Virus record (IMG/VR): IMGVR_UViG_3300027749_000040
Coordinates: 110,471-174,470 of that record
Source: a virus
Length of the DNA stretch: 64,000 nucleotides
Reading direction: 5' to 3' (one strand)
Under the pieces are notes generated by a model. It was not told the DNA's origin and searched no databases. It was given only the letters and a program-made list of their open reading frames with translations. Made by a program: the position numbers and the translations under genes. Of this stretch, positions 11,728 through 56,709 are shown piece after piece (positions within the stretch are counted from its first letter, which is position 1; the number at the start of each line of letters is the position of its first letter).

Positions 11728-12488
11728 CAATAGGTATATTTGGAGATAGTTTTGCAGTAGTTGATAACCACAAAAATCGAAGTTGGACAGGCCTATTAGC
11801 AGAGATATTAGACGAAGGATATGTATGCTACGGTGAACCATCTACTTCTATATGGTGGTCATATGAACTTTTTTTAAAACATTATAAAAAATATGACAAG
11901 ATAGTTTTTACATACTCACATTATAGTAGGTGGAGTTATTTGCCTGAACACCTTACTAAACTATCTCTTATTAGACCTAAAGGTCATGTCGGGGGTTTTG
12001 ATTCGCACGGTGATGACTCACTAAAAAAATATGTTGATATATTACTTGAAGCTCATCCTATATTGTATTCTGAGGAGTTACAATTATTTACATATCAAAA
12101 TATCTTCAATAGTGTAAACAAATTGTGCAAAGATACAAATATAAAATTGATTAACTTAATGCCTTTTGAGCAAAGTTATGTAGATTTTCCAACAAATAAT
12201 AAATTAGTAGATTTATATATAGATATATCGGAAGCATTCGGGCCGTGCTTAACTGGTTTAGCAGATGTAAGTTTTGGTGAATTATTGGATCAACGCGGTT
12301 TAGTACATAAAGATAGTTTTAAAGGAAAAGTTTTTGATAAACGAGCATCACACCTATCATTGGATAATAATAAAGTTCTGGCATCAATTATATCAGAGAT
12401 ATTTAATTCCGAGCAAACAAGACCAAAATTGATACAGTTACAAAAAGACAATAGATTTTTTAAAGGAACATTCTTTAATGAGAATTGA
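11724..12488 (+). CDS. SGNH-like hypothetical protein
   Basis: N-terminal IGIFGDSF...SW, C-terminal SHLS..NN..LA; AT-rich. Confidence 0.55.
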   Translation: MTIGIFGDSFAVVDNHKNRSWTGLLAEILDEGYVCYGEPSTSIWWSYELFLKHYKKYDKIVFTYSHYSRWSYLPEHLTKLSLIRPKGHVGGFDSHGDDSLKKYVDILLEAHPILYSEELQLFTYQNIFNSVNKLCKDTNIKLINLMPFEQSYVDFPTNNKLVDLYIDISEAFGPCLTGLADVSFGELLDQRGLVHKDSFKGKVFDKRASHLSLDNNKVLASIISEIFNSEQTRPKLIQLQKDNRFFKGTFFNEN

Positions 12489-13059
12489 TTCAGACATTGA
12501 CATAGATTTTGGAGATAGAGATAAACTACTGTCTCTAATCAAACATACACCTGCATCAATGCGTAATATCACTCCTATTCGTAGACACAATACTGGTGTC
12601 TACATAACAGATATCCCATATGATCCTGTTAATAATATGTCAGCACTACATTATGAAGACGCAGAAAAACGTGGATATTTCAAACTAGACTTGTTGAATG
12701 TGCATGTGTATTCACAGGTTCGTGATGAAACACATTTAGTTGAATTGATGTATGAACCAAATTGGTCTAAACTAAATGATAGAGTATTTGTTGAGAAATT
12801 AATTCACCTATCAAATCACTATCAAAGTATTCAGAAGATGACTGAGCCAATTGATAGTATCCCTAGATTAGCAATGTTTTTAGCATTGATTCGTCCTGCT
12901 AAAAAGCATTTAATTGGTAAGAGTTGGAAAGAAGTGAGTCAAACTATATGGGACCGTGAGAATGACGGATATAGTTTCAAAAAGAGTCATGCTATAGCTT
13001 ATGCACAGTTAGTCGTTGTACATATGAATTTACTTACAACATCCGTTTCACAAGCGTAA
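12478..13059 (+). CDS. dnaE: Miniature DNA polymerase III alpha (DnaE) C-half: catalytic palm plus fingers remnants
   Basis: SDIDIDF (=PDFDVDF), RHNTGVYI (=KHAGGVVI), GYFKLDLL (=GLVKFDFL), LALIRPA (=VALFRPG), GYSFKKSHAIAYA (=GYGFNKSHSAAYA). Confidence 0.85.
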   Translation: MRIDSDIDIDFGDRDKLLSLIKHTPASMRNITPIRRHNTGVYITDIPYDPVNNMSALHYEDAEKRGYFKLDLLNVHVYSQVRDETHLVELMYEPNWSKLNDRVFVEKLIHLSNHYQSIQKMTEPIDSIPRLAMFLALIRPAKKHLIGKSWKEVSQTIWDRENDGYSFKKSHAIAYAQLVVVHMNLLTTSVSQA

Positions 13060-13414
13060 TACTACGGCGTTTTGTCCTACGTTTGTGTAGTTCATTTATG
13101 CTACAAGCAGGGCCATGCACGATAGTTAGACTTTTATTGTGAAAAGTTCGTATATATGGCTTGAATATGATCCATTCATCTTTAAGGAATAAATTAATAG
13201 GAATCAATCTGTTAGATTCCCACCACCATATATCACCTAATTCTAAGAATTTCTCTTTAGCCATTGGGTCGATTATAGCACCATAATCGTAAATAGTAGT
13301 GACAACATCATCTCTATTCTGTACAATCCCCACATAATCTTGATTAGCGTAGGAGCACACGGTGATGAAGGGGTGGTTTTCTGTTAGTTTTGTGAAAAAT
13401 TCGTTAGGTAACAT
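13034..13414 (-). CDS. Hypothetical protein
   Basis: ATG 13414 (MLPNEFF) downstream of a minus-strand GATAAATA; basic C-terminus. Confidence 0.7.
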   Translation of the reverse strand: MLPNEFFTKLTENHPFITVCSYANQDYVGIVQNRDDVVTTIYDYGAIIDPMAKEKFLELGDIWWWESNRLIPINLFLKDEWIIFKPYIRTFHNKSLTIVHGPACSINELHKRRTKRRSITLVKRML

Positions 13415-13434
13415 TGTTGTTCTTATGACCGAAA

Positions 13435-13475
13435 TATTTATCATCGGGTAGCCTGGCAATATATTTTGATAAATA
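13435..13475. promoter_or_regulatory. Divergent pair of T4-late-type promoters
   Basis: GATAAATA on minus (13435-13442) and on plus (13468-13475, 5 nt before ATG 13481). Confidence 0.7.
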
Positions 13476-13480
13476 CGATT

Positions 13481-14269
13481 ATGTACTCAACTCAAGTATT
13501 CGTTTATACCCAACGACAAATCGTTATTCTTTTATCAGGAAATTCCCCTAGGAGTTATATGCCCCAGTATGCAAAGCCACTCACTCTACACAAAGGTGTA
13601 GATAATCAAATTCAATTTCAGTTCTTAAATCAAGAACAAAAACCCGTCAATATCACAGGAAAAGAAATATCTTGTAGAATTTTAAATTCTACCGGTGTCA
13701 CAGTTCTTATTAGAAAAGCACTTACTATTCAATTAGGTGCAACCGGTATTGCCGCATTGATGTTAAATCCCGGAGAGCTAGAAGAAATTGAGGCACAAAA
13801 ATGTTATTATACATTAGAAATTCCAGTAGGCACATTTGATTACCCTGTATTTGTAGACCAAAATGCAGGTGGCCGGGGTGATATGAATATTGTTAATAGT
13901 ATATTACCTAGCTTTGTTCCTAGCAATGAAATAACTATTCCTACTGGACAAGGTTATCCTAATCCAGATTGGTATTCAAATGACGGATCGTATGTACCTG
14001 ATTCTAATTCGGTTGTATATTATACCAGTGTTTATACCACAACTGATAATCCTAGATTAACACTACAAGCCACATATACCGACTTCTATGGTAATGTATT
14101 GATTGAAGGTTCTACTATTGGTAATACAGACTGGTATCCAATTAGTACAATATATAGTTATACTGAAACAACAGACACATTCCATTATAACATTAATGGA
14201 TTCCACCCATTCATTCGTATGGGGTTTGTGAGCAATGCGGGCGTAGTAACCAACATATTGGCAAGATAA
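13481..14269 (+). CDS. Putative virion structural protein (BppU-N-like N-terminus)
   Basis: LHKGVDNQIQFQFLNQEQKPVNITG pattern; beta-rich; late promoter. Confidence 0.55.
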   Translation: MYSTQVFVYTQRQIVILLSGNSPRSYMPQYAKPLTLHKGVDNQIQFQFLNQEQKPVNITGKEISCRILNSTGVTVLIRKALTIQLGATGIAALMLNPGELEEIEAQKCYYTLEIPVGTFDYPVFVDQNAGGRGDMNIVNSILPSFVPSNEITIPTGQGYPNPDWYSNDGSYVPDSNSVVYYTSVYTTTDNPRLTLQATYTDFYGNVLIEGSTIGNTDWYPISTIYSYTETTDTFHYNINGFHPFIRMGFVSNAGVVTNILAR

Positions 14270-14272
14270 GTA

Positions 14273-14301
14273 TTGACTGTGTGACAGATTTATGTTACAC
14301 T
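14273..14301 (+). promoter_or_regulatory. sigma70-type promoter, probably leaderless
   Basis: TTGACT-N17-TACACT with TGn; ATG 14308 is 6 nt downstream, no SD. Confidence 0.7.
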
Positions 14302-14307
14302 ATGTAG

Positions 14308-15288
14308 ATGTTCGATATTCTGTCTATAATTCCAGGCAAGAAAAAACTCACTCAAGGTGGATGGCACAGTTTCAATGCTGTATGTTGTAACCATCGCGGC
14401 CACAAAACTGATGCCAGAAGCCGAGGTGGTGTTCATTTTGATGGATCAATTAATTGGTTATACCATTGCTTTAATTGTGGGTTCAAGTGTGGGTTCACAC
14501 TTGGAAGAAGTTTAACAAAGAATACACGACAACTATTAACTTGGTGCGGAGTAGATGATACGCAGATTAGTAAGTGGAGTTTAGAAAGTTTACAACAAAA
14601 AGATATACTAGACTTTACTCAACCTAAAAAGAAAACTAAAATTAAGTTTGACGAACATAAGCTGCCTGACGATGCAGAACTACTTGACCAAAATAATCAA
14701 TCACACAAAATATATGTAGACTATCTAAAATCAAGAGGTATAAGTAGTAGTGAATATCCTTTCATGGTCACTCCCAACGAATCAAGTCGCATGGGAAATC
14801 GCATCATCATTCCCTATACATACAAAAACAAGATTGTTGGTCACACAAGTAGGTTCTTAGACAATAAGATTCCAAAATATATCAACGAACAACAACCTGG
14901 TTATGTATTTGGATATGATTTTCAACAACCCAATCAAAGTGTTTGTATACTAGTCGAGGGCATCTTTGATGCATTGAGTCTAGGTGCTTGTGCGTTAACT
15001 CATAACACGATTAACGATGACCAAGCAGAACTACTAGCACAACTTAACAGACAAATCATTTTTGTTCCCGACCGTGATAAAACAGGATTTGACTCCTGTG
15101 AGAGGGCTATTCAACTAGGCTATAGCGTCAGTATCCCACACTGGGACAAGGACGTAAAAGATGTTAATGATGCAATTGTCAAATATGGTAGACTACCTAC
15201 ACTACTCAGTATATTGCAGTCTGCTACAATGAGCAAAATTAAAATAGAAATGCAAAGGAAAAAAATTGGTAAACAAAACGGATTCTAA
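14308..15288 (+). CDS. DNA primase (T4 gp61-like)
   Basis: Zn-binding CC...HCFNCG; TOPRIM VEGIFDA, DRDKTG, KDVND. Confidence 0.88.
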   Translation: MFDILSIIPGKKKLTQGGWHSFNAVCCNHRGHKTDARSRGGVHFDGSINWLYHCFNCGFKCGFTLGRSLTKNTRQLLTWCGVDDTQISKWSLESLQQKDILDFTQPKKKTKIKFDEHKLPDDAELLDQNNQSHKIYVDYLKSRGISSSEYPFMVTPNESSRMGNRIIIPYTYKNKIVGHTSRFLDNKIPKYINEQQPGYVFGYDFQQPNQSVCILVEGIFDALSLGACALTHNTINDDQAELLAQLNRQIIFVPDRDKTGFDSCERAIQLGYSVSIPHWDKDVKDVNDAIVKYGRLPTLLSILQSATMSKIKIEMQRKKIGKQNGF

Positions 15289-16726
15289 AAAACAAATTGA
15301 CTATACCCCGGAAGTACAAAAGTACTTTTTACGAATGATGATGACTAACGCCGAATTATACACTCGGGTTATGAACATTATGAACAGCGAAAACTTTGAT
15401 AAGTCATTGAGACCTGCCGCAGAGTTATTTAAAGAACATACAAACAAATACAAAGTATTACCAGATCATACTCAAGTTAAAGCAATGACTGGAATTGATA
15501 TAGAACCTATCCCAGAACTGAATGAAGGTCACAACGAATGGTTCTTTGATGCGTTTGAATCATTTACTAAACGGCAAGAACTAGAAAGAGCAATTCTTAA
15601 AGCCGCAGACTTACTTGAGAAAGGTGACTTTAGTCCTGTTGAAAAATTAATCAAAGATGCAGTACAAATTAGTTTACAACGAGACATGGGTACAGATTAC
15701 TTCTTTGATCCTAAAGGTCGTATTAACAAATACTTCAACGCAGGCGGACAAGTTAGCACAGGCTGGCCCCAGATGGATCGTATCTTATATGGTGGTATGA
15801 GTCGGGGTGAACTTAACATCTTTGCAGGTGGCTCAGGATCAGGTAAGTCATTAGTAATGATGAACTTGGCATTGAACTGGTTACAAGCAGGAATGAGCGG
15901 AGTCTACATCACACTTGAATTAAGTGAAGAACTAACAAGTTTGCGTACTGATGCTATGTTAACACAGATGGGTACTAAAGCAATTCGTAAAGACATTGAC
16001 ACTACCGATCTCAAGGTTAAGATGGTTGGTAAAAAAGCAGGAAAGTATCGTGTTAAAGGATTACCCGCTCAAAGTAATGTAAATGATATTCGTGCTTACT
16101 TAAAAGAAGTACAAATTCAAACAGGCATTAAAATTGATTTTGTAATGGTTGACTACTTAGATTTGGTTATGCCGGTCTCTGTTAAAGTTAATCCTAACGA
16201 TCAGTTCATTAAAGACAAATATGTTGCAGAAGAATTGCGTAACTTAGCTAAAGAGATGGGCGTGTTATTAGTAACTGCATCGCAGTTGAATCGTAGTGCA
16301 GTCGATGAGATTGAATTCGACCACAGTCACATTGCCGGTGGTATCAGTAAAATTAATACAGCAGATAATGTGTTTGGTATCTTTACAAGTCGCAGTATGC
16401 GTGAGCGTGGTAAGTATCAGATTCAATGTATGAAAAGTCGTAGTTCAACGGGTGTGGGTATGAAAATTGACTTAGAATATGACATTGAAACAATGCGTAT
16501 CAGTGATAGCGATCCTGACGGGTATGCGGATCAACAAGCAAAGTATAGACCTAGTCCTAGTCCAACCGACATTATGAATCAAGTGAGAGCACAATCTACG
16601 TTAGTTTCTACAGAACCTATTATTGACCAAGCTACAGGTGAAGTATTAGAACCCTTAAATAAAAAGGTCGCAGTAGACGTTCAGGGTTCTAAACTCAAAA
16701 ATTTACTCAACAGTTTGAAGAGGTAA
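15266..16726 (+). CDS. Replicative DnaB-like helicase (T4 gp41-like)
   Basis: GGSGSGKS, ITLELSE, VDYLD, TASQLNR, MKSR; TTG start with SD AAAGGA. Confidence 0.9.
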   Translation: MVNKTDSKKQIDYTPEVQKYFLRMMMTNAELYTRVMNIMNSENFDKSLRPAAELFKEHTNKYKVLPDHTQVKAMTGIDIEPIPELNEGHNEWFFDAFESFTKRQELERAILKAADLLEKGDFSPVEKLIKDAVQISLQRDMGTDYFFDPKGRINKYFNAGGQVSTGWPQMDRILYGGMSRGELNIFAGGSGSGKSLVMMNLALNWLQAGMSGVYITLELSEELTSLRTDAMLTQMGTKAIRKDIDTTDLKVKMVGKKAGKYRVKGLPAQSNVNDIRAYLKEVQIQTGIKIDFVMVDYLDLVMPVSVKVNPNDQFIKDKYVAEELRNLAKEMGVLLVTASQLNRSAVDEIEFDHSHIAGGISKINTADNVFGIFTSRSMRERGKYQIQCMKSRSSTGVGMKIDLEYDIETMRISDSDPDGYADQQAKYRPSPSPTDIMNQVRAQSTLVSTEPIIDQATGEVLEPLNKKVAVDVQGSKLKNLLNSLKR

Positions 16727-16728
16727 GA

Positions 16729-16735
16729 CTAAATA
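16729..16735 (+). promoter_or_regulatory. T4-late-type promoter (CTAAATA)
   Basis: 7 nt before ATG 16743. Confidence 0.55.
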
Positions 16736-16742
16736 CTATATC

Positions 16743-16997
16743 ATGCAAAAACAAACTCGCAGCCTGTTGGAAGAATTAGAGTCAATCGGTAATAACCGTG
16801 ACACCAGTCACATTATTGAGAGCCGAGGTCATAACATCATTACCAGTGCAATTAATTTACTAGAAATGATTAACAGGCATTATACGCCTGTTCAGGCTGA
16901 AATTTTAGAGCGTAAGCTACTAAGTGCTATAAAAAATAAAGACCAGAGTAAATTTGCAAAATCACTAAAAAAGAATAGCAACAATGAGCCTATCTGA
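16743..16997 (+). CDS. Hypothetical protein
   Basis: 84-aa helical ORF after a late promoter. Confidence 0.7.
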   Translation: MQKQTRSLLEELESIGNNRDTSHIIESRGHNIITSAINLLEMINRHYTPVQAEILERKLLSAIKNKDQSKFAKSLKKNSNNEPI

Positions 16998-18132
16998 GTC
17001 CCTGTCGATATTAAAGTCTAAAATTGATAAATTTTCCATTAAAGAGGCTAAGGGACATTTAGACCATCCTGAGGATTTAATATTTTTAGACGGCACTCAA
17101 GGTGCTAACCGTGCTGTTCAAGCAAGCGTAGACACAGTTAAAAATCCAGCAACAGTCACAATTAAGTGGGATGGATATCCTGCATTGATTTTTGGGCGTG
17201 GTACAAATGGCAAGTTCAGTATTATGGACAAACATATGTTCAATAAAAAAGACTTATCAGGTCGTCAAGTATTCAGCCCCGAACAATTTGTTGAATATGA
17301 TAGAGCCCGAGGAGTTGACCGTAGTGGATTACATCAATTAATTGCCGAAATTTGGCCAGGACTAGAAAAGTCAGATAGAAGCAAAGGTTATTACTGGGGA
17401 GACTTACTATTCAGTCAACCGTTGCAAGAACAAAACGGTATGTATAAGTTCAAAGCTAATCCCAATGGTATTGCATACACAGTTGAGGCAAACAGTGAAG
17501 TAGGACAGTTATTTAAAGGAAAACAAGCCGCTATTGTGGTACACCAGTTTATTCCTCCAAATGCCGCTACAACAGATGAAGCCACACCATTGGACGGTGG
17601 CATTGGTAGTTTGAAAAATAACAGTAATGTAGCTATTGTTCCTGCAAAAATGCCCATCACTCCTAAATTAAAGATAAGCAGTAAATTAGTTAACCAAGCA
17701 CAATCTGATATTAAAAAGTATGGTCCTGCTGTGGATCAATTGTTAAATACAGCTCCGCAAGCCGCAACAACATTTCGTGGATTGTTTACTACCTATATCA
17801 ATAAGAAAATTGTTGCAGGTGATTTGAATAATTTAGTAGATGGATTTATGGAATACTTTAATAGTCGTCCAATGACTGATGCTATGAAAACAAAGTTGAC
17901 TCAGCACCTAGAAGCTAATAAAGCAGGATTAGTTGGAGCATTCACTATATGGGTTAGTTTATATCAATTGAAAATGGCTATCGTAGACCAACTCAATAAA
18001 GCCGCAGAAGCAAGTCCTGTGAAGGGCTATCTAGATGACGGAACACAGACTCAAGAAGGTTTTGTCAGTAACGGACTCAAATTTGTAGATAGAATGGGCT
18101 TCAGCCGTCAGAATTTGGCTGGAAGAACCTAA
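16984..18132 (+). CDS. DUF6267-like protein, ATP-dependent ligase/nucleotidyltransferase-like
   Basis: GHLDHPED, TIKWDG (motif I KxDG), GDLLF, EGFV, LKFVDR..FSRQN. Confidence 0.6.
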   Translation: MSLSESLSILKSKIDKFSIKEAKGHLDHPEDLIFLDGTQGANRAVQASVDTVKNPATVTIKWDGYPALIFGRGTNGKFSIMDKHMFNKKDLSGRQVFSPEQFVEYDRARGVDRSGLHQLIAEIWPGLEKSDRSKGYYWGDLLFSQPLQEQNGMYKFKANPNGIAYTVEANSEVGQLFKGKQAAIVVHQFIPPNAATTDEATPLDGGIGSLKNNSNVAIVPAKMPITPKLKISSKLVNQAQSDIKKYGPAVDQLLNTAPQAATTFRGLFTTYINKKIVAGDLNNLVDGFMEYFNSRPMTDAMKTKLTQHLEANKAGLVGAFTIWVSLYQLKMAIVDQLNKAAEASPVKGYLDDGTQTQEGFVSNGLKFVDRMGFSRQNLAGRT

Positions 18133-18159
18133 CCAAAACCGACTTTTTTAATTGCTAGG

Positions 18160-18167
18160 CATAAATA
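18160..18167 (+). promoter_or_regulatory. T4-late-type promoter with 5' leader hairpin
   Basis: CATAAATA, then hairpin TGAATC-TATAT-GATTCA and SD AAAGGA. Confidence 0.7.
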
Positions 18168-18212
18168 AGTGTATGAATCTATATGATTCAAACATTTTAA
18201 AGGAAAATTATC

Positions 18213-18635
18213 ATGGCAGGTTTTACAAGAACACACGGCGATGCACAACCAGTATTCGCAATTGACGTACAAAATGGTCCAGTAGCTCCAGATACGGCAG
18301 CTAACGGCACGACTACTAATTTATATGGTCCAGCACTTGACTTCTTCGGTTTTGACTTAGGGGCCGCTCCAACAGCACAATTAGGTGTTGACGAGATGGT
18401 TGCACAAGTTATGGTTTCTATCGAACAATTAGCTACAGTTGCAATTTATGCAGTTCAAGCTACCGCAAACACAACAAACATGTCTGTTGCTGTTTATCCA
18501 GTAGGCGCATACACCGCGGCTGCACTACAAGCACAAACTCGTGCTTTAGGTACAGTTAACGGTTATGACCTAAGTGGTGCTGTTGTTACTAACGTTGGTT
18601 TCCGTTTAGCTTCTTCAGCTACAAGCGCAAGCTAA
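18213..18635 (+). CDS. Small Ala/Thr-rich putative virion protein
   Basis: Own late promoter, strong SD and own terminator; 140 aa. Confidence 0.6.
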   Translation: MAGFTRTHGDAQPVFAIDVQNGPVAPDTAANGTTTNLYGPALDFFGFDLGAAPTAQLGVDEMVAQVMVSIEQLATVAIYAVQATANTTNMSVAVYPVGAYTAAALQAQTRALGTVNGYDLSGAVVTNVGFRLASSATSAS

Positions 18636-18655
18636 TCAGAAGTTTAACTTCAAAG

Positions 18656-18685
18656 AAATCCGAGATTTATTCTCGGATTTTTTTT
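18656..18685 (+). terminator. Rho-independent terminator
   Basis: AAATCCGAGA-TTTAT-TCTCGGATTT followed by a T-tract. Confidence 0.88.
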
Positions 18686-18689
18686 GCCT

Positions 18690-18696
18690 CTAAATA
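18690..18696 (+). promoter_or_regulatory. T4-late-type promoter (CTAAATA)
   Basis: 5 nt before ATG 18702. Confidence 0.6.
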
Positions 18697-18701
18697 CACA
18701 T

Positions 18702-19157
18702 ATGAGTTTTAAAATAAGTTGCTATACATTATTTGATATCACGCAGACAGGTGTTATTAATCGTTCCAGACCCGGAACAGACGATGATCCTGAAGTATGG
18801 TTACATAGAAGAAACACGCAATGTAATTTTGATACAATAGTGCAAGCAGTATCATTGAGGTCACAGCCAGAGAATATTACTATTCCTGTGCTTAATAAAA
18901 TTAAGTTAAATGAATTTGATAGTTTTGGTTTTCTTTTTGAAGAAGATATTGAAATAAATTGCTGGACCTTTGATTTTACTGTTCAACATGCCAGTGTATA
19001 CCATGATGGAATAACTGATTTGGGTTCATTATATTCAGATTGTGACCAAGTTCCAATGATAAAGACAAGTAAAGCCTGGGATAAACTACCAGTATTTTTG
19101 GATAGTTCGGATGAACTTAGAAACATTTATTTTAAGGTGGTCGAAAATGATGAATGA
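18702..19157 (+). CDS. Hypothetical protein
   Basis: Start moved to ATG 18702 (MSFKISCYTLFDITQTG). Confidence 0.75.
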   Translation: MSFKISCYTLFDITQTGVINRSRPGTDDDPEVWLHRRNTQCNFDTIVQAVSLRSQPENITIPVLNKIKLNEFDSFGFLFEEDIEINCWTFDFTVQHASVYHDGITDLGSLYSDCDQVPMIKTSKAWDKLPVFLDSSDELRNIYFKVVENDE

Positions 19158-19632
19158 TATTGAACTAGAACGAAAATTTAACAGAATGATTTCTACAAAA
19201 GAAATCAATGAGTTGCAAGATGTTTCTATTTTTGAAATGACTAAGGATAATTATGTCGTATTCAAACAATACCGTATAAAGAAAAAGTCCAAAACAGACA
19301 TTGATGTTTGTTTGACAAACGGAGATTTGGTGCATTCTTTTTCTAGTATGCGTAATGCTATTTGTTGGTGCATTTTTGACAAACGTGGCAAATATGTTAT
19401 GGCTGATAGAATAATAACATTAGACAGGTGTATCTCTAATGAAGAGGTCCAAATGTCAATTCATAAAAACTTATTCAAAAAATCAAAAAAAACAGAGGAT
19501 AAATTAATATTCCTAGCAAAATTGAACGAGGACCAGTTTAGACGCAGTACAATGCATCGAGAATTAGAGAGTTATGTGGGACAGTCTGACTATTGGCAGA
19601 AGCATCAGTTTAAATTAAAAACCGCACATTAA
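19147..19632 (+). CDS. Hypothetical protein
   Basis: SD AAGGTGG, ATG 19147. Confidence 0.7.
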   Translation: MMNDIELERKFNRMISTKEINELQDVSIFEMTKDNYVVFKQYRIKKKSKTDIDVCLTNGDLVHSFSSMRNAICWCIFDKRGKYVMADRIITLDRCISNEEVQMSIHKNLFKKSKKTEDKLIFLAKLNEDQFRRSTMHRELESYVGQSDYWQKHQFKLKTAH

Positions 19633-19677
19633 AGCCAAAAGTGATAAATACTTTATATTAGTCTTGGGACCACAACT

Positions 19678-20400
19678 ATGAAATTAACAGATTTTGACAA
19701 ACAACCAGTATACAGTGCTCAAAGAGCATTAAAAGAGCATTATGGCACATCCATTGATGTTAGCAGAATGACTTATGCACAAGTGCGTAACATGCTTAGT
19801 AAAGTTCGCGGCTTGATGAGTGAATCTAAAGAATCAACCAAGTTCTATGAAAGTACTGCAAACAGTTCATACATGAAACTAGTTTTTATGGAACAAGCAT
19901 TGAGCAAGCAATTTGCTTACTTAAGCACACACCGCCCGCGTATCGTTGTCGAGAATGAGGAAGTAGAAAAGTCACAGACTATTCTAGCCGCACAAGATAT
20001 GGTTGACTCTATTCAGAAGATGGTTGAGCAAGTTAGTGATATGATTGTTAAAGAACTTCCTGCATTGGTTGACTCAGTTCAATCTGAAATTGGTGTTAAC
20101 GAGAGTTCTTCCTTCAGTCAACAAGCCACAGAAGCATTGACTTCATTACAAGCCGCATTGACACAAAGCCAAGGCACAATGAAAGACGCTGTAAATGGTA
20201 TTACTGGTCAAGGTGATATGGGTGCATTTGACGGCGCCGATGATATGAGTACTGATATCGGTGGTGATTTAGGTGGTGAAGAAGATTTCAACATGGATGC
20301 AACTGAAGAACTGCCGGACGGCGGCGAAGAAGAAGTTGACCTAAACATGGGTGACGAAGAACCAGAAGATTTAGGTTCTGTAGGCCGCGCCAAAAGATAA
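19678..20400 (+). CDS. Coiled-coil protein with acidic C-terminus, possible prohead/core component
   Basis: Late promoter GATAAATA 19643-19650; helical heptads; D/E-rich tail. Confidence 0.55.
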   Translation: MKLTDFDKQPVYSAQRALKEHYGTSIDVSRMTYAQVRNMLSKVRGLMSESKESTKFYESTANSSYMKLVFMEQALSKQFAYLSTHRPRIVVENEEVEKSQTILAAQDMVDSIQKMVEQVSDMIVKELPALVDSVQSEIGVNESSSFSQQATEALTSLQAALTQSQGTMKDAVNGITGQGDMGAFDGADDMSTDIGGDLGGEEDFNMDATEELPDGGEEEVDLNMGDEEPEDLGSVGRAKR

Positions 20401-20401
20401 T

Positions 20402-21580: not shown

Positions 21581-21583
21581 ATA
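21576..21583 (+). promoter_or_regulatory. T4 late promoter consensus TATAAATA
   Basis: Exact consensus 5 nt before ATG 21589. Confidence 0.7.
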
Positions 21584-21588
21584 CATCT

Positions 21589-48600: not shown

Positions 48601-49894
48601 AACATTAACAAGTTTAAGTTCAATCGGAAACATTAATAGTGCTAACATTACCGGTAATCATTATGGTGCGGGTAATAACTTATCAAATATACAAGGTGCC
48701 AACGTAACGGGTGCAGTATCTAGTGCAAATACTGCAGGTACTGTCACAACAAATGCACAACCAAACATTACAAGTTTAGGAACACTAAGTTCACTAAGTG
48801 TCACTGGTAATGTGACTGGTGGTAACTTAACAACTGGTGGATTGATTACTGCTACAGGTAACGCTAACGTAGGTAACTTAGGTACCGCACAATTAATAGC
48901 TACAGGTAATGTAGCACTGAGTGGAGCAAATGTAAGTTTAGGTGCTGTTGCTAATTTAAAGATTACAGGTGGCACTGCAAACTACTTCTTACAAACTGAT
49001 GGATCAGGTAATTTAACTTGGGCAACATCTAGTTCAACTGTTGCAGGGGCATTTACTTATACACAAGTAACTCCGACAACAACTTGGGTAATCAATCACA
49101 ATTTAGGTTATCAATATGTTAACATTCAAGTTGTTGACAGTACTGGTAATAGTTTTACAGGTAGATATAATTATCCAACTGTTACATTCAATAACACAAC
49201 TCATTGTACTGTAATATTTGATAGCGCACAAGCAGGTTATGCCGCTGTATCTTCAGGTGGTGGTAATGTTGGCCCAGCTGGCCCGGCAGCCACTATCGGT
49301 GGCTCAAATACACAAGTTCAATATAATAATGCAGGTGTATTAGGTGGTTCATCTGCATTCACATTTAATAATTCAAGTAACTTAGTATCAATGACTTCAT
49401 TGAGCATTAGTGCTAATGCTAATATTGGTAACATTGGTACAGGCGGTGTGATTACCGCAACTGGTAACATTACTGGTGGTAATATCAGTGGTACATTATT
49501 AACAGGTACTCTGGCAACAGCAAGTCAACCCAATGTTACTGCTGTAGGAACACTAGCATCATTGAGTGTAAGTGGTAATGCTAACGTAGGTAATATAGGT
49601 GCAACAAACATTGTTGGTACAATATCTACTGCATCACAGACTAATATAACTGCTGTAGGAACACTAGCATCATTGAGTGTAAGTGGTAATGCTAACGTAG
49701 GTAATATAGGTGCAACTACCGGTGTATATACTACATTAACTGCAACCGGAAATGTAACAGCCGGTAATGTTTCCGTAGGAACAGGTACTCTAACAGTGGG
49801 TACAGTAACTACTGGCTCAAACACAACAGCAGGCACCATGACTGGTAACTTTACATTAAGTGCAGGGTCAAGATTAGCAGCCACTTACTCATAA
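45662..49894 (+). CDS. Long tail fibre-like protein (1410 aa)
   Basis: N-terminal D.IRSAFQKVQDNFDEVY anchor; about nine Q(P/S/T)N(I/V)T..G.L repeats; late promoters at 45634-45648. Confidence 0.8.
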   Translation: MSQKNIDFGAFPDDPSADAIRSAFQKVQDNFDEVYSGLTSASVNSVNRSQGAGITVNSPTGNVVVSANIANVTVQSPNLIFGTSLSVLASSAVYTSSTQVLYVVVPNTFSIGNIVLSGDANVGGNLSVGGNVSLGNVVAANYFIGSGNNLSNIQGANVTGTVALATTAGTVSTNAQPNITSVGTLTSVSVSGNLTSGNANLGNAVTANYFIGSGNNLSNIQAANITGTAANSNYAAYAGDVVNASQSNITSVGTLTGISVSGNANIGNIGTSIITAIGNITGANLVTGGLLSVTGNANIGNIGTSIITAIGNITGANLVTGGLLSVTGNANVGNVGTTGLYATTLSATGNANVGNIGAIDVVATTLAGSLTTNAQPNVTSTGTLTSISVSGNANIGNIGTSIITATGNITGANLITGGLLSVIGNATLGNVSVTGNLTAGNIVVDSIVNGNSNVDITNSNGNITMGVNGNADVFIATGSGVIVNGTLNASTNITTPQLISNIATGTAPFIVSSTTQVANLSVATSGSANTAGTVTTNSQPNITSIGNLSSLTSNGIIDFTNSTNVSLGSNTIVHITGGTNGQVLATDGSGNLNWTTYIGSPIAGNTTEVQFKDTSGNLGASANFTFNKTTNTLSATNITGTTVSLTGNANVGNLGTGNIVASGDVNGGNLGTGGNITASGNITGAYILGNGSQLSGLPSGTGVANGTSSVTVPTTNGNVVIASAGNTVANITGTGINVAGTLSASGNANVANIGATNGVFTNVSGNGSALTSITGGNVTGAVSFATTANAVAGANVSGTVSSANTAGTVTTNAQPNITSTGTLTSLSVSGNANVGNIGATNGVFTNISGNGSSLTSLTGASITGQVSYANIANSVALVNVSGAGNIASININGNASQILYGNGVFAASPVTYDNSNVATFLASYGSNTITTTGNVSVGNIIGNGQALTGIAGANVTGQVGNSLISSTVYTNAQPNITSLGTLTSLSSIGNINSANITGNHYGAGNNLSNIQGANVTGAVSSANTAGTVTTNAQPNITSLGTLSSLSVTGNVTGGNLTTGGLITATGNANVGNLGTAQLIATGNVALSGANVSLGAVANLKITGGTANYFLQTDGSGNLTWATSSSTVAGAFTYTQVTPTTTWVINHNLGYQYVNIQVVDSTGNSFTGRYNYPTVTFNNTTHCTVIFDSAQAGYAAVSSGGGNVGPAGPAATIGGSNTQVQYNNAGVLGGSSAFTFNNSSNLVSMTSLSISANANIGNIGTGGVITATGNITGGNISGTLLTGTLATASQPNVTAVGTLASLSVSGNANVGNIGATNIVGTISTASQTNITAVGTLASLSVSGNANVGNIGATTGVYTTLTATGNVTAGNVSVGTGTLTVGTVTTGSNTTAGTMTGNFTLSAGSRLAATYS
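46445..46653 (+). repeat. Perfect 99-bp (33-aa) tandem duplication within the fibre gene
   Basis: Unit 46445-46543 repeated at 46544-46642; diverged third copy near 46832-46930. Confidence 0.9.
49538..49716 (+). repeat. 68-bp exact repeat with 111-bp period within the fibre gene
   Basis: 49538-49605 = 49649-49716. Confidence 0.85.
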
Positions 49895-49903
49895 GGAGAA
49901 CAA

Positions 49904-50527
49904 ATGATAACAATAGAATTATTACAGGCATTATGTCCAAAAACAAAACGATCTTTGTTAGAAGGTTATATTGAGCCGTTAAATACAGCCGCACAATATT
50001 ACGATATGTTTGATAATTTAAATCGTGTTGCAGGATTCTTAGCACAAATAGCACATGAGTCTGGTGGATTTACTGCTGTTAAAGAAAACTTAAACTACAG
50101 TGCTAAAGGATTGATGGGTACTTTTAAAAAATATTTTCCTACAGAAGAATTAGCAAAGCAGTACGAGCGTAAACCTGAAAAGATTGCCAATCGTGTTTAT
50201 GCTAATCGTATGAATAACGGTGATGAGTCTTCGGGTGATGGGTACCGTTTTTGTGGTCGAGGATTAATTCAATTAACAGGTCGAGCTAACTATACTAAAT
50301 TTGCTAATGATTTGGGTATGAGTATTGAAGATACAATTGCATATTTAGAGACACCAAACGGTGCTGTAGCAAGTGCGGGTTGGTTTTGGGACAATAACAA
50401 CTTAAATCAATATTGTGATCGTAATGATTTTGTTACATTGACTAAACGTATTAACGGCGGAACCATTGGATTAGCCGATAGAGAGCATCACTATCATTTA
50501 GCATTGAAATTATTAGGTACGCATTAA
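49904..50527 (+). CDS. Glycoside hydrolase family 19 lysozyme/endolysin
   Basis: FLAQIAHESGGF, ENLNYS, GRGLIQLTGRANY, TKRINGG..GL.DR; SD AAGGAG. Confidence 0.92.
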   Translation: MITIELLQALCPKTKRSLLEGYIEPLNTAAQYYDMFDNLNRVAGFLAQIAHESGGFTAVKENLNYSAKGLMGTFKKYFPTEELAKQYERKPEKIANRVYANRMNNGDESSGDGYRFCGRGLIQLTGRANYTKFANDLGMSIEDTIAYLETPNGAVASAGWFWDNNNLNQYCDRNDFVTLTKRINGGTIGLADREHHYHLALKLLGTH

Positions 50528-50528
50528 T

Positions 50529-53024
50529 ATGGCACAACCAATTTGGAATACTCCTGCAGGATCAATAGGTAGTTTTCCTGCGACATTAACATCACTATTT
50601 CAATTGAGTGCTAGTGCAGTGGCGCCGGCGACATCAGTTACATATGCGTTAATAAGTGGAACATTGCCTAGTGGCATTTTAATTGATATACATGGTTTAT
50701 TATCGGGTACACCAACAATCGTAGTATCAAATGTAACTTCAACTTTTACAGTACGTGTTACTGATAATTTAGGAAACTTGAGAGATAGAACTTTTAGTAT
50801 GACTATTACCGGTACTGCTATCCCTCAATTTCTCACACCCAACGGCAGTCTATTAACAACACAAGATAGTATATGGATACAATCTTCTATTGCGTACTCT
50901 AATCCAAAAACAGACAATCCTGTTATCATTCAAGTAAGAGAAGGCTCATTGCCCCCTGGTTTAGAAATTGATTTATTGGGAGTTATTCGGGGATATGCTA
51001 ATCCACCTATAGTTACTATTACGCAACCATCAGTTATTGCCAATGCTTCAGAAACCGTAAGTAGTAACAATACACTAGTAGTTTCTTCTACTGCCGGCTT
51101 TAGTGTTGGTCGCCCGGTTAATTTTACAGGAACAACCTTTGGTGGTGTCAATACTGGTATAACATATTATGTTAAATCAATATTGAATTCAACTACTTTT
51201 ACAATTACTGCTACACAAAACGGCCCCACGTATTTAATAAACAATGGCGCAGGTTTAATGACAGTAACTTTACCACCGGTGTCTACTGGTAATCCTACAA
51301 TTAGGACATATACATTTACGCTTGAATTGTCTAGCCCATTGGGTTCTGATTTGGGAAATTTTTCAATTACTGTAGTTAATCAAAATGTTCCTGTCAATCA
51401 AGGAGGACCAGGAAAACCCAATAATAGTAGAATTCCTGTACTTTACAATGCTAGACCACCTACATTTATCATAAATGATAACGATCCATACTATGGATAT
51501 TATATATTGCCGCCAGTAGCACCTACTCAATTTGCTAATATGGGTAGTTTTCAAAGCGGCGAATATTTTGCATTTAAAATGATAGGACATGATTTTGACA
51601 GTAACCCAATCAAATACATATATTCTAATTTACCTGCCGGATTAACAGGTGATGTGAACACTGGATGGATCACTGGCACACCTTCATTAGCGTCAACTGG
51701 AATTAGTAATTATAACTTTAGCGTAGGTGTTTATAAGTCTGATGCGCCGCAATATGCTAGCCCGTTTTATAATTTTAATTTTGCATTACAAAAGAATATT
51801 ACAGGTAACATTACTTGGATTACTGATAGTGCATTGGGTCAACTATATAACGGCAATATTAGTACACTCTTTGTAAGAGCAAGTAGTGATGTTGGTTTAA
51901 GTTACAGATTAACATCTGGAACGTTACCTCCTAACTTATCAATTGCAAGTAATGGAGAAATAATTGGAAGAGTAGCAGATCAACCAACTGACAAATATTT
52001 AGAACTAGGTGATATTTCAAATTATACCTTTACCATACAAGCCTATTCTACAATTTATCCCACAGTTATTTCTAGTAAAACCTTTACAATTAGTGTATTA
52101 CAAGAGTTTAATCAACCAACTGATACATTATATATAAAGGCTGCACCACCTATAAATGATAGATTGATATTGCGTGAGTTGTTGGGTAGCGATACAATTA
52201 TACCTACTGATACTTTGTATAGACCAGATGATCAATACTTTGGTAAAGCAACAAGTGTTATATATGAACATGCATATGGTATATATGCGAGTGACATACA
52301 ACAATACTTACAAGCAGTTACAAGAAATCATTATTGGAGAAATATTACTTTAGGGGAATTAAAAACTGCTGTAGCAAGAAATAGTGCAGGAGATATTATA
52401 TATGAAGTTGTATATAGTGAAGTGATTGACAACTTAGTTAATCCTCAAGGAGTGAGTATACAAAGTCAAATTCTTTGGCCAAGAGCAATAGATTTGGGAT
52501 TAGGCCCATGGTATACAAGTAATAATGAGATTTTTACTAGTTGGGAAGAATTATTAGGACAACAATATTATACTAGTTTAACCCCCGGTTATGCACAAGT
52601 TCTGTATCCAAACAGTTTATACAATATGCGTAATCGTGTAGCACAAGTTGTTGGACAAGAATATGATAGTAGATTGTTACCGCAGTGGATGACAAGCCAA
52701 CAAATAAATGGTAGCACATTGGGTTATATTCAAGCATGGGTAATTTGCTATACTAAACCGGGATATGCAGAGACAGTAAAGAACAATATTGAAACACTAT
52801 GGCTTGACCCAGTTGGTAATGTTTATACATTGAATTTAATTAATTTCCAAATTGATAGATTCAGTGTAGATAAGAGTGCTACTTATAATTATGATAATCA
52901 CACTGACCCGGCAGCTTGGACAGGTTTACCTAGTGCTACCCCAGCGCCAGATCCATTAGATAGTAGAGATTTCTATGTGTTATTTCCTAGACAAACAATT
53001 TTACCGAATCAAACACAATACTAA
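50529..53024 (+). CDS. Virion structural protein with tandem Ig-like (He_PIG-type) domains
   Basis: Repeated G.LP.GL......G.I.G.P modules. Confidence 0.75.
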   Translation: MAQPIWNTPAGSIGSFPATLTSLFQLSASAVAPATSVTYALISGTLPSGILIDIHGLLSGTPTIVVSNVTSTFTVRVTDNLGNLRDRTFSMTITGTAIPQFLTPNGSLLTTQDSIWIQSSIAYSNPKTDNPVIIQVREGSLPPGLEIDLLGVIRGYANPPIVTITQPSVIANASETVSSNNTLVVSSTAGFSVGRPVNFTGTTFGGVNTGITYYVKSILNSTTFTITATQNGPTYLINNGAGLMTVTLPPVSTGNPTIRTYTFTLELSSPLGSDLGNFSITVVNQNVPVNQGGPGKPNNSRIPVLYNARPPTFIINDNDPYYGYYILPPVAPTQFANMGSFQSGEYFAFKMIGHDFDSNPIKYIYSNLPAGLTGDVNTGWITGTPSLASTGISNYNFSVGVYKSDAPQYASPFYNFNFALQKNITGNITWITDSALGQLYNGNISTLFVRASSDVGLSYRLTSGTLPPNLSIASNGEIIGRVADQPTDKYLELGDISNYTFTIQAYSTIYPTVISSKTFTISVLQEFNQPTDTLYIKAAPPINDRLILRELLGSDTIIPTDTLYRPDDQYFGKATSVIYEHAYGIYASDIQQYLQAVTRNHYWRNITLGELKTAVARNSAGDIIYEVVYSEVIDNLVNPQGVSIQSQILWPRAIDLGLGPWYTSNNEIFTSWEELLGQQYYTSLTPGYAQVLYPNSLYNMRNRVAQVVGQEYDSRLLPQWMTSQQINGSTLGYIQAWVICYTKPGYAETVKNNIETLWLDPVGNVYTLNLINFQIDRFSVDKSATYNYDNHTDPAAWTGLPSATPAPDPLDSRDFYVLFPRQTILPNQTQY

Positions 53025-53046
53025 ATACTAGACGGAACAAATAATT

Positions 53047-55905
53047 ATGACAAGTGCAATCAATACAAACGGAATCAATGTAAACTATCCAGTACCGGGT
53101 ATCAATAATAGTTCACAGGGCTTTAGAGATAACTTTGCTGCCATCAAAACTGATTTGAATGTTGCGGCTACAGAGATTACAGATTTACAAAATAATGCTG
53201 TCTTAAAGCAAGCATTGACAGGAACCACATTAAATAATGACATGGCTAATACATTAATTAGCAATGCTGTTACTAGAGGATTTAGAGCAAGTACTTTTAA
53301 CTTAGGTAATGCTATTTCCGGCACTCTTATAATTAACGCAGGTTTGGGCGATGTGCAAACCGGTACTATCAATGGCAATACTACAATTCAATTTACAGGC
53401 TGGGCGCCAAGAGGTACTCAAAGTAATGTTGAAGTACAATTAAACATAGCTAATAACTTGGCAGTAATTGCTTTGCCATCACAAGTTAATATTAATGGTA
53501 CATCGGGAATAGAAACAATTGAAAACTATGCCAATGTTAGCGGCATTCCCACACTAACCATACCATACGATGTTAATCGATTAGATTATCGTTTCAGTAC
53601 ATTAGATTGCGGTGACTCAATTACAATTGAACCATATAATCAACCAAGACAAAGCACACAGTTAAAGCAACGTACACCTAGTCCAGTTGGCGAACAAGGT
53701 GATGTAGTAGGTACATTCTCTATGGATCCTGCAACATCAATTGCATTTGCTACATGCACTGCAACTAATGGCACGTATGATTTTATTACATGTGATAGCA
53801 CATTAGGCTTCTATTTAGATATGCCAGTCGTATTCACTGGTATAACATTTGGTGGTATATTAGGTGGTGGTACATATTATGTACGCTCTATTCTAAGTTC
53901 AACTACATTTACAATTTCAACTATGCCTGGCACATATGCTGGCCCGAGCCAATTAACTAATTTAATAACTGCTACTGGAACAATGTATGTTTCTCCTATC
54001 AGTTATTTGTATGCAAGTACTGGTGCGTATGACGGAACTGTTATGAACAAGTATGCATCAAATACTAATGAAGTAATAACTACCGTAACCGGAACAAATA
54101 CATCTAGTTCAGGTAACACAATTACTGTTTCAAGTACTAGTGGATTTGTTGTTGGTTATCCTGTTGCATTTTCTGGCACTTTATCTAATACTTCAGCAAC
54201 ACAAACTTACTTAACTGCAAATACAATAACTGTTTCAACTACTGCAAACATGATTGTGGGTGGACGCATTGCATTTGCGGCTACTTCGGGCGCTGTGTTT
54301 GGTGGTCTTGTACCATCAACAGCATATTACATTACCAATGTATATCCTGGAAATTCAAACATCACAGTAAGTACAACATTTGGTGGAAATAATATTTCAT
54401 TGTCAAATGATACTGGTTTATGTAGTGTAGATTACAATGGTATCATGGGAGGATTAACTCCTAGCACTGATTACTATGTTCAGAGCATTGCAAATGGCAC
54501 TGCATTCACTGTTTGTGCAAACAATCCCGGGGGTGCACCTGTAGCTTTGATAAGTGAAAACGGATCTATGAATGTAACTACTGTAACTGATTATACAGTT
54601 ACATTAACTAGTAGTACAGGCAACATTACAAATAATTCACCTATCACATTCTCTGGCAATGTATTTGGTGGAGTTACAACGAACACAATATATTATGTAG
54701 CTAACATTACAAATGGTACTGACATTTCGTTATCATCTACACTGTACAATGGTTTATCAGGACAAAAGTTGCCATTAACAACTGCCAATGGAAACATGAC
54801 AGTAGAAATAACAGCTGGTACAGAAATATGGAAATCGGTACCGTTAAAGCCTTTTGGTAGTGCTGAAGATGGCTCTGCTATTAGTGGCGATTTGGTTGTA
54901 TACGGAAATGCCAATGTATTTGGTACTACTACAGTAGCTACAATAAATGCCGGTACTGTAACAGGAAACATAGCGGCTACCAATATCACAGTAAGCAATG
55001 TTGCTAGTTTTGCTAACTCGCAGATAAAAATTACAGGCGGTGGTAGTGGACAGTTTTTACAAACTGATGGCACTGGTAATTTAGCATGGTCTGCTGGAAC
55101 TGTTTCATCAAATGCGGCACCGGGCGGCATTAATACTTATGTTCAATTCAATGATGCAGGAACATTGAATGGTGTTGCAGGATTCACATTTGACAAATCT
55201 ACTAATAGTATTGCTGTCACAGGAAATTTAAGTGCAACTGGTAATACAACAGTTGGCAACTTAACAACTGCTGGAAACATTGTAGCAAATAACTATACTA
55301 CTACAGCGGGTAGTGTAACTGCACCGTTATATAAAAATGGTACAAGTAATATTGCTATTACTAGTGGTGGCAATATAACAATGTATGTTGCAGGTAATGC
55401 AACTGCTAGATTGACTGCAACATCCACAGGTGCAAATATTACAGGTACATTGAGTACTAGTGGTAATGCAATAGTAGGTAACATCAGTACAACAAACGGT
55501 GTATTTGCCGGAGCGTTATCTGGTATTACTACAATAACAGCAAATGGTAATGTATCTGCTTCTAATTTGATATCTAGCACCTACATAGTATCCGGCGTAA
55601 CTAATAGTATTACTGCAAATGGTACAGTTCAAGGCAATGCTACAGTATTAGCAAATGGATTTAACGTAGTAAGTACGGTGTCTAGTAGTAATTATGGTGT
55701 TAAACTTCCAGCGCCAATCAGTGCAAATTCTACAGTTGGTATGCGTGTTCTGGTTAGAAACGACGGTGCTGTTCCATTGTATGTTTATCCTCCTACTGGT
55801 GCACAGATTAATAGTTTGGGTGCCAATATTGCATATCAGCAGAACGCAACATCTACTAACGAGTTTTTCTGTACAGGAAACTTAGTGTGGTATAGTTTGA
55901 ATTGA
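53047..55905 (+). CDS. Large virion fibre/baseplate-associated protein
   Basis: N-terminal SQGFRDNFAAIK coiled coil; repeated FGG.....YY(V/I)......(F/I)T(V/I)S modules; ACTAAATA 53020-53027. Confidence 0.7.
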   Translation: MTSAINTNGINVNYPVPGINNSSQGFRDNFAAIKTDLNVAATEITDLQNNAVLKQALTGTTLNNDMANTLISNAVTRGFRASTFNLGNAISGTLIINAGLGDVQTGTINGNTTIQFTGWAPRGTQSNVEVQLNIANNLAVIALPSQVNINGTSGIETIENYANVSGIPTLTIPYDVNRLDYRFSTLDCGDSITIEPYNQPRQSTQLKQRTPSPVGEQGDVVGTFSMDPATSIAFATCTATNGTYDFITCDSTLGFYLDMPVVFTGITFGGILGGGTYYVRSILSSTTFTISTMPGTYAGPSQLTNLITATGTMYVSPISYLYASTGAYDGTVMNKYASNTNEVITTVTGTNTSSSGNTITVSSTSGFVVGYPVAFSGTLSNTSATQTYLTANTITVSTTANMIVGGRIAFAATSGAVFGGLVPSTAYYITNVYPGNSNITVSTTFGGNNISLSNDTGLCSVDYNGIMGGLTPSTDYYVQSIANGTAFTVCANNPGGAPVALISENGSMNVTTVTDYTVTLTSSTGNITNNSPITFSGNVFGGVTTNTIYYVANITNGTDISLSSTLYNGLSGQKLPLTTANGNMTVEITAGTEIWKSVPLKPFGSAEDGSAISGDLVVYGNANVFGTTTVATINAGTVTGNIAATNITVSNVASFANSQIKITGGGSGQFLQTDGTGNLAWSAGTVSSNAAPGGINTYVQFNDAGTLNGVAGFTFDKSTNSIAVTGNLSATGNTTVGNLTTAGNIVANNYTTTAGSVTAPLYKNGTSNIAITSGGNITMYVAGNATARLTATSTGANITGTLSTSGNAIVGNISTTNGVFAGALSGITTITANGNVSASNLISSTYIVSGVTNSITANGTVQGNATVLANGFNVVSTVSSSNYGVKLPAPISANSTVGMRVLVRNDGAVPLYVYPPTGAQINSLGANIAYQQNATSTNEFFCTGNLVWYSLN

Positions 55906-55917
55906 TAAATAACTTGG

Positions 55918-56166
55918 ATGCAACATCCTTTTATCAATGACCTATCTGACAAGTCTATGGAAGACTTGTCTAACACAATCTCAGAGTTAACTAAAAAGTT
56001 AACCTTTGCTTATCGTATGCAAAATGGGCAAATGATCCATCAACTTCAAATGGTACTTGAAAGCTATCGTACTGAGTATAGCAAACAAATGGATGAGATG
56101 TTTAAGAAGCAAAACATCAAATCAAACATCAGTGTGCAAAAAGAGGGCGAAATCAGATCCAAATGA
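55918..56166 (+). CDS. Hypothetical coiled-coil protein
   Basis: 82 aa; GATAAATA 55904-55911 lies 6 nt upstream. Confidence 0.7.
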   Translation: MQHPFINDLSDKSMEDLSNTISELTKKLTFAYRMQNGQMIHQLQMVLESYRTEYSKQMDEMFKKQNIKSNISVQKEGEIRSK

Positions 56167-56167
56167 T

Positions 56168-56196
56168 TTGACTTCCCTTGTTAAATAGTGTATCAT
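56168..56196 (+). promoter_or_regulatory. sigma70-type promoter, probably leaderless
   Basis: TTGACT-N17-TATCAT; ATG 56203 is 6 nt downstream. Confidence 0.7.
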
Positions 56197-56202
56197 TACA
56201 CA

Positions 56203-56709
56203 ATGCGAACTGATATCTATGGTCAACAAATCTACAATGAAATGGAACTATGTCTGCTATATTTGCAGGATCCTACACGTATCATTAAACGTGCATTGGT
56301 AGAGAATGAAATCAAATTTGACGAAGTACTTCAATTAGAAAATACTCCTGAACTTATTCAATACAATAGGTTAGACATGACAATAGAACAGTTTGACAAT
56401 CAAATGCAATCAAACTGGTTAATGCCTGAACAATACAAAACGATGGACATTGCACAATATGTGTTGAATCAATGTCAGGGAGAAGCAGAATTACAACGAG
56501 CAGGAGAAGAATTAATACTGTTCCAAGAACGAGATATGTTTGTGTTATTGCGTTATTTAAAATATCTAGTTGACACTATGCGTGAAAATAATATACTATG
56601 GGGTGTCGGTAGAGGGTCAAGTGTAGCAAGTTTTGTATTGTTTTTGCTTGGAATTCACCGCATAAATAGTTGTTACTATGACTTATCTATAGATGAGTTT
56701 TTAAAATAA
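56203..56709 (+). CDS. dnaE: Miniature DNA polymerase III alpha (DnaE) N-half: first part of the palm
   Basis: QRAGEELILF...LVDTMRENNILWGVGRGSSVASFVLFLLGIHRINSCYYDLSIDEFLK aligns without gaps to DnaE ERLETEL...GPGRGSGAGSLVAYALKIT.LDP...LLFERFL. Confidence 0.85.
   Translation: MRTDIYGQQIYNEMELCLLYLQDPTRIIKRALVENEIKFDEVLQLENTPELIQYNRLDMTIEQFDNQMQSNWLMPEQYKTMDIAQYVLNQCQGEAELQRAGEELILFQERDMFVLLRYLKYLVDTMRENNILWGVGRGSSVASFVLFLLGIHRINSCYYDLSIDEFLK

Follow-up and report, generated by a model that had tools for sequence, protein, structure and literature searches.

Whether a virus can build one DNA polymerase from two short proteins encoded tens of kilobases apart is the question raised by the locus considered here. 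The window (the whole stretch of DNA analysed, 64,000 nt) is the final 64 kb, positions 110,471 to 174,470, of the 174,470-base IMG/VR virus contig IMGVR_UViG_3300027749_000040, whose completeness is put by CheckV at ~50%. An earlier note, made from the sequence alone, had proposed that two of its open reading frames (ORFs) are complementary halves of a DnaE-type (family C) DNA polymerase with no intein, and that the pair is the best candidate in this DNA for an undescribed system. The first proposal is borne out here; the second is not. The preferred reading, at a probability of roughly 0.8, is that the two ORFs encode the two chains of the minimal split polymerase III (Pol III) alpha of group 2.2 (T4-like) jumbo phages, associating non-covalently and acting beside a family B replicase. 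That they form one enzyme is most likely on the basis of their co-occurrence, the purifying selection on both, their invariant catalytic residues, a fused homologue, and a model of the complex that passes its controls.

The two genes and their starts

Both ORFs are present, and are referred to below as the N-half and the C-half:

56203–56709, + strand: N-half of the minimal split Pol III alpha; ATG start, 168 amino acids (aa); Pfam, PHROG and structure matches.
12478–13059, + strand: C-half of the minimal split Pol III alpha; 193 aa; PHROG, PDB profile and structure matches.
12478–12488, + strand: 11-nt overlap of the C-half ATG with the end of the upstream ORF (11724–12488).
56168–56196, + strand: sigma-70-like promoter match, TTGACT-17-TATCAT, with 10/12 consensus positions, ending 6 nt 5′ of the N-half ATG.

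They are 43.7 kb apart, and the source contig stops 7.8 kb past the N-half. The N-half start at the ATG at 56203 is also the one in public gene calls (P0121); an alternative in-frame GTG at 56188 would add five residues, for 173 aa. The earlier note gave this gene its own promoter and the C-half translational coupling to the ORF before it. The promoter-like sequence is there, and as a candidate promoter its evidence is weak, a consensus match only, with nine such matches in the region against 4.4 expected. The overlap at the C-half start would be compatible with coupling. None of the 80 related loci compared contains the upstream ORF.

Homology to Pol III alpha

The N-half matches the Pfam family PF07733 (DNA_pol3_alpha) with an E-value of 6.9e-9, above the curated cut-off, residues 98–172 of the 173-aa form aligning with profile positions 20–94; this family was found once in the whole source contig. 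A second match of the N-half is to PHROG 11127 (E 6.6e-39). For the C-half Pfam gave no match, whereas PHROG 11778 matched with an E-value of 7.6e-58. Both PHROG families carry the annotation “DNA polymerase.” Single-sequence phmmer searches of either half against PDB sequences did not find a polymerase, and family profiles were required. A profile of 75 diverse C-halves (29–56% identical to that of the window) had exclusively Pol III alpha chains as its top PDB matches, the best at E 5.8e-5, in three collinear blocks corresponding to E. coli alpha residues 399–418 (the MPDFDVDF strand, weak when taken alone), 539–641 (covering K553, D555 and the RPG motif), and 740–767 (covering FNKSHSAAYAL). 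The corresponding N-half profile aligned residues 96–167 with E. coli 321–392 and Taq 380–454 (E 9e-4), again with Pol III alpha only among the top matches. The profile comparison of each half with DnaE that the earlier note called for thus places both in the family. No match to PF02811 or PF17657 (PHP and finger domains) was found in the source contig (~50% complete) or in a 359.6-kb relative rated 100% complete.

The predicted folds agree with this. AlphaFold2 models had a predicted local distance difference test score (pLDDT) of 94.9 for the C-half and 90.3 for the N-half, and the first 10–11 Foldseek matches listed for each were all family C polymerases. Foldseek alone gave no match at E ≤ 1e-3 for either half, and the usable Z-scores are those from VIA-align. 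With this program, N-half residues 73–168 superpose on E. coli alpha 278/280–393 (Z 9.3–10.5; root-mean-square deviation 2.6–2.8 Å, 93–96 residues aligned) and match Mycobacterium tuberculosis DnaE1 306–413 with a Z-score of 11.3. The C-half, over its whole length (1–193), corresponds to E. coli alpha 397–784 (Z 7.0–8.2) and to Taq 458–841 (Z 9.5, 190 residues aligned); the top unrelated chain reaches only Z 3.5. N-half residues 1–68 are a phage-specific extension with no structural match. The part of E. coli alpha represented is limited to residues 278–784.

Within these limits, residues ~73–168 of the N-half are the first part of the palm, including a GVGRGSS loop at 134–140, and the protein ends at EFLK. 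In the C-half, D6 and D8 correspond to the catalytic E. coli D401 and D403, and K69 and D71 to K553 and D555; R139–P140 lie in an “RPG” motif and K169–S170–H171 in a “KSH” motif. Compared to E. coli alpha, most of the thumb (419–538) and about 100 residues of the fingers (642–739) are gone, and neither chain contains the clamp-binding, OB or tau-binding domains of Pol III alpha.

In E. coli numbering, the N-half thus stops at about 393 and the C-half picks up at about 397, which leaves no room for an intein; a Pfam scan of the two halves also found no Hint or intein domain, in keeping with the earlier note. On this mapping the halves tile the family C palm with a gap of ~3 residues, the cut falling just before the catalytic aspartates.

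Conservation and selection

Residues D6, D8, K69, D71, R139 and P140 are invariant across the 75 C-halves, and D10, H37, G40, K168 and H171 almost so. The loop G134-V-G-R-G-S-S140 is invariant across 55 N-halves. An EFLK/EFIK junction is common to all 11 N-half sequences displayed, including that of Pseudomonas phage MIJ3 (40% identity); stand-alone N-halves end there, while the N part of the one fused protein, described below, reads on.

Ratios of nonsynonymous to synonymous substitution (dN/dS) were estimated pairwise by the Nei-Gojobori method; dS is high, so that the figures are rough. Medians were 0.22 for the N-half and 0.16 for the C-half, well below the value near 1 that the earlier note would have counted against it, and between the window and its nearest relatives the ratios were 0.06 and 0.08, respectively. 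On these sequence comparisons, both halves are under purifying selection.

Distribution and co-occurrence

Among cultured phage records, tblastn found the N-half in 93 and the C-half in 96, with a nearly identical spread of phage names (PA5oct/MIJ3, RaK2, 121Q/PBECO4, GAP32, CBB, Atu_ph07, SCTP-2, Phosso). In metagenomes there are at least about 8,000 cluster representatives per half at E ≤ 1e-5, and the two halves match at least 586 and at least 597 IMG/VR stretches.

Co-occurrence was examined in 10 long IMG/VR contigs, five picked via the C-half and five via the N-half. The N-half was found in all five of the former and the C-half in all five of the latter, so all 10 hold both, as the earlier note would predict. 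The two genes are never adjacent, lying 35–130 kb apart across the set. In nine of the 10 the C-half is upstream of the N-half on the same strand, at 35–97 kb; the window and PA5oct (spacing 43.6 kb) likewise have the C-half upstream on the same strand. The sole opposite-strand case is IMGVR_UViG_3300032668_000004 (181 kb), where the C-half occupies the minus strand at the contig start (366–929) and the N-half is on the plus strand ~128 kb away, at about 129 kb. This arrangement could be a rearrangement or an assembly artefact.

A natural fusion of the two halves

An exhaustive search of 1.84 billion representatives gave 412 matches at E ≤ 1e-3, of which the best 150 were inspected. Among these 150, all are stand-alone proteins or fragments of up to 233 aa, except for one:

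1066–2193 of L003 (an ENA metagenome contig, 2.4 kb, 25% G+C): P0300, a single-ORF fusion of N-half and C-half, 375 aa.

Residues 36–180 of P0300 correspond to the N-half at 37% identity (E 9e-22), with KEFIK as their last residues; after a linker of nine residues (DNKEGIYNI), residues 190–371 correspond to the C-half from its residue 5 (38% identity, E 3e-39). The two units and their order are those of the window pair, here joined into one ORF at the split point. Just 3′ of P0300 is a reverse-strand ORF with a weak match (E 7e-4 to 9e-3) to the conserved reverse ORF that follows the C-half in many relatives, including MIJ3 and GAP32, which places the fusion at the C-half locus of a real, AT-rich relative. 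In a quick maximum-likelihood tree the C part of P0300 groups with the stand-alone P0309 and P0311, with a Shimodaira-Hasegawa-like approximate likelihood-ratio test (SH-aLRT) support of 90, below the starred level. This position, nested among stand-alone C-halves, hints at a secondary fusion.

No fused or longer C-half relative was found by a word-index search, a weak negative because the same search missed P0300 too. Relatives of P0300 were not found in the IMG/VR scan; among metagenome contigs there were only two ordinary full-length DnaE genes, L174 and L175. The first of these (L174:4366–8382) encodes a DnaE-type polymerase in two pieces, an ORF of 382 aa for the PHP domain closely followed by one of 933 aa for the polymerase; this is another kind of split than that of the N-half/C-half pair. 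One of the inspected matches, P0328 (233 aa), has C-half sequence for its first ~100 residues and then an unrelated tail, and is probably a frameshifted or chimeric gene call.

Model of the proposed complex

The two halves were modelled together with family alignments supplied, alongside controls. The pair reached an interface score (ipSAE) of 0.88, compared to 0.01 for the best control; of 80 solved complexes 58 reach the same mark, as do two of 110 mismatched pairs. Contacts agree between runs to at least 97%, and the pLDDT of the partner is at least 86. A confident interface, for which the earlier note looked, is predicted. In the model, N-half residues 65–73 contact C-half residues 43–46 and 65–67, and the GRGS loop of the N-half (133–142) contacts C-half residues 9–11 and 168–181. 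This loop placement is as would be expected if the two chains rebuild one palm. The model supports binding without demonstrating it.

Relation to known systems

The cyanobacterial DnaE proteins (DnaE-n and DnaE-c of Synechocystis and Nostoc) are full length, split far C-terminal of the active site, and rejoined by a split intein. These are likewise family C polymerases made from two distant genes, in contrast to which the phage cut falls three residues before the catalytic strand and involves no intein. With the unsplit DnaE of E. coli (2HNH, 5FKU) and Taq (2HPI, 3E0D) the phage pair shares the Pol-beta-like palm, the catalytic triad, and the GRGS, RPG and KSH motifs, and it is collinear with bacterial Pol III alpha over E. 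coli residues of about 278–784. It is however far smaller (~361 aa in two chains, vs. ~1160 aa in one), lacks the PHP domain, most of the thumb, about 100 fingers residues, and the beta-clamp-binding, OB and tau-binding domains, and has a 68-residue N-terminal extension foreign to DnaE.

The closest counterpart is the “minimal, split DNA polymerase III alpha” of group 2.2 jumbo phages, described from sequence alongside a family B polymerase (Iyer, Anantharaman, Krishnan, Burroughs, and Aravind, 2021, Viruses 13:63, PMC7824862; sections 3.4.1 and 3.5, Fig. 3b). Like the present pair, it consists of a stand-alone N-terminal NTP-binding unit and a C-terminal Mg- and template-binding unit, encoded by distant genes, with no further Pol III domains and with a family B polymerase in the relatives. 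It has been suggested to work with the family B enzyme in repair or in making one of the two strands (Iyer et al., 2021). The surrounding gene order of the window pair also matches that in PA5oct/MIJ3 and GAP32. The one difference is lineage, the window being from an uncultured phage whose halves share no more than 48% identity with their counterparts in any cultured phage. The window genes almost certainly belong to this family, and the idea that the system was undescribed has to be given up; this is a further example of a known enzyme, nothing new in kind. A 2026 review of jumbo phages does not mention the split enzyme.

What is added here are structural boundaries (E. coli alpha 278–393 and 397–784), a table of invariant residues, evidence of selection on both halves, the recurrent gene order, a predicted interface, and one natural fusion. 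The class itself is of interest: a bacterial-type polymerase core at one-third of the usual size, cut through its active site, that thousands of metagenomic phage sequences retain alongside a replicase of archaeo-eukaryotic type. P0300 could ease its biochemistry and, if the pair is a working polymerase, would be a construct for testing ideas on an ancestral Pol III core.

Probably one enzyme, and of what kind

In the mechanism proposed, the N-half would supply the first palm strand and helices together with the GRGS triphosphate-binding loop. From the C-half would come two strands, one bearing the DxD metal ligands and the other the third aspartate, along with shortened fingers carrying RPG and KSH. 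The chains would associate without covalent joining into one Pol-beta-like nucleotidyltransferase palm, ~361 aa in all, with an active site drawn from both. A non-covalent two-subunit enzyme of about 360 aa had been suggested in the earlier note, and computation (co-occurrence, selection, the fusion, the complex model) now argues for it. That the two halves form one enzyme is very probable. It would act beside the family B replicase and not instead of it, most likely as a low-processivity DNA polymerase for repair, gap filling, or part of lagging-strand synthesis. For template-directed DNA polymerase activity as such, the chances are judged somewhat better than even. A still more specific version is put forward tentatively, its chances falling a little short of even: a working two-chain family C polymerase of ~361 aa, the smallest known of its family, with a shared active site and perhaps with proofreading in trans by the DEDD exonuclease described below.

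A number of observations weigh against the preferred reading. The Foldseek E-values are weak for both halves (4e-3 to 0.1). Without most of the thumb and all of the clamp-binding parts, template-directed, processive synthesis is not assured. The fused form is a single find, from one sample and one contig of 2.4 kb. Solved structures already exist in which the domain made up by the two halves is one chain, and the complex model may owe its pass to remembered Pol III alpha structures, which makes it a sign of likeness and not of binding. No biochemical or genetic work on any member was found in the literature. Finally, no family B polymerase was found in the 174-kb source contig (~50% complete).

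On this last point the relatives are informative. A family B polymerase ORF, of 910–980 aa or in a split version, is present in all five near-complete relatives examined, and in the complete relative G006 it lies ~30 kb beyond the N-half. Since the source contig ends 7.8 kb after its N-half, it probably stops before that gene. The earlier note had implied a contrast between this phage and those using family B polymerases, and the relatives speak against it; of its suggestion to look for another polymerase elsewhere in the genome, the contig itself yielded none and the relatives did. The presence of the family B gene in all five also indicates that the split enzyme is an accessory, not a replacement for the replicase.

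Of the alternatives, the one that survives best is that the halves do form one enzyme, and that it is some other nucleotidyltransferase of the Pol-beta fold: a terminal transferase, a modifier of primer or RNA 3′ ends, or a nucleotide-signal or anti-defence enzyme. A phage that already owns a complete family B replicase, and whose split enzyme has lost most of the thumb, about 100 fingers residues, and all domains binding the clamp, the DNA duplex and tau, might have put it to such a use. The motifs that have been kept (GRGS, DxD...D, RPG, KSH) are however specific to family C and include elements of the fingers, the strong structural matches are to DnaE and PolC only, with the next unrelated chain at Z 3.5, and both genes are within replication modules. 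Such an enzyme is considered unlikely.

It is far less likely again that the halves work independently, each with a function of its own, and co-occur only as parts of a shared core genome. The genes are indeed never adjacent (35–130 kb) and are in different gene modules. Neither half completes a palm alone, however, so that new functions would be needed for both; residues for catalysis and NTP binding are spread over both chains and all invariant; and the in-frame natural fusion joined at the split point, the confident complex model with its failed controls, and co-occurrence in 10 of 10 contigs also speak against this reading. Decaying remnants of a full-length phage or host DnaE, which short, far-separated pieces with partial DnaE coverage might bring to mind, can be dismissed: the ORFs are intact with dN/dS of 0.06–0.27 and invariant active-site residues, and the same boundaries recur in at least 586 and at least 597 IMG/VR stretches and in 93 and 96 cultured phage records.

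Gene neighbourhoods

Neighbourhoods were counted in 80 related loci and compared with MIJ3 and GAP32. On the 3′ side of the C-half, a small reverse-strand ORF is found in 77 of the 80, a 267-aa ORF in 70, a primase in 59, and a DnaB-type helicase in 42, the last count being limited by flank length; this order recurs in MIJ3 and GAP32. On the 3′ side of the N-half are a 119-aa ORF (80/80), a GroES/gp31-like co-chaperonin (79/80) and a clamp loader (69/80), in the same order in MIJ3. The C-half thus belongs to a conserved module with primase and DnaB helicase, and the clamp loader is close to the N-half. The other features of the window mapped near the two genes are:

11179–11727, + strand: stand-alone DEDD 3′–5′ exonuclease (PF16473, Rv2179c-like, E 1.8e-33; PHROG 255).
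11724–12488, + strand: 254-aa ORF starting MTIGIFGDSFA (a GDSL/SGNH-like first block), between the DEDD exonuclease and the C-half and overlapping the C-half start.
56720–57079, + strand: 119-aa protein with an acidic tail (PHROG 14844, function unknown), directly after the N-half, as in 80/80 loci.
57453–58070, + strand: 205-aa ORF between the GroES-like gene and the clamp loader; no family match.
59285–60361, + strand: 358-aa protein with a YHYH domain (PF14240, E 2.3e-14), between the clamp loader and PhoH.

In the clade of the window a DEDD exonuclease is usually just 5′ of the C-half, abutting it in 47 of the ~65 related IMG/VR loci with sufficient upstream flank; in the window itself the 254-aa ORF intervenes. 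That ORF has no match in Pfam or PHROG; since none of the 80 related loci contains a homologue, it appears to have been inserted recently. The exonuclease was considered as a family-wide partner of the C-half and rejected as such, the gene just upstream in MIJ3 and GAP32 being a different one and the adjacency a feature of this clade only. As a clade-specific proofreading partner it may be mentioned, speculatively.

Downstream of the N-half, the tight linkage of the 119-aa ORF could reflect a functional tie between the two; MIJ3 has a small ORF in the matching position. The 205-aa ORF is present in just one of the 80 related loci, and is a lineage-specific insertion in an otherwise conserved module.

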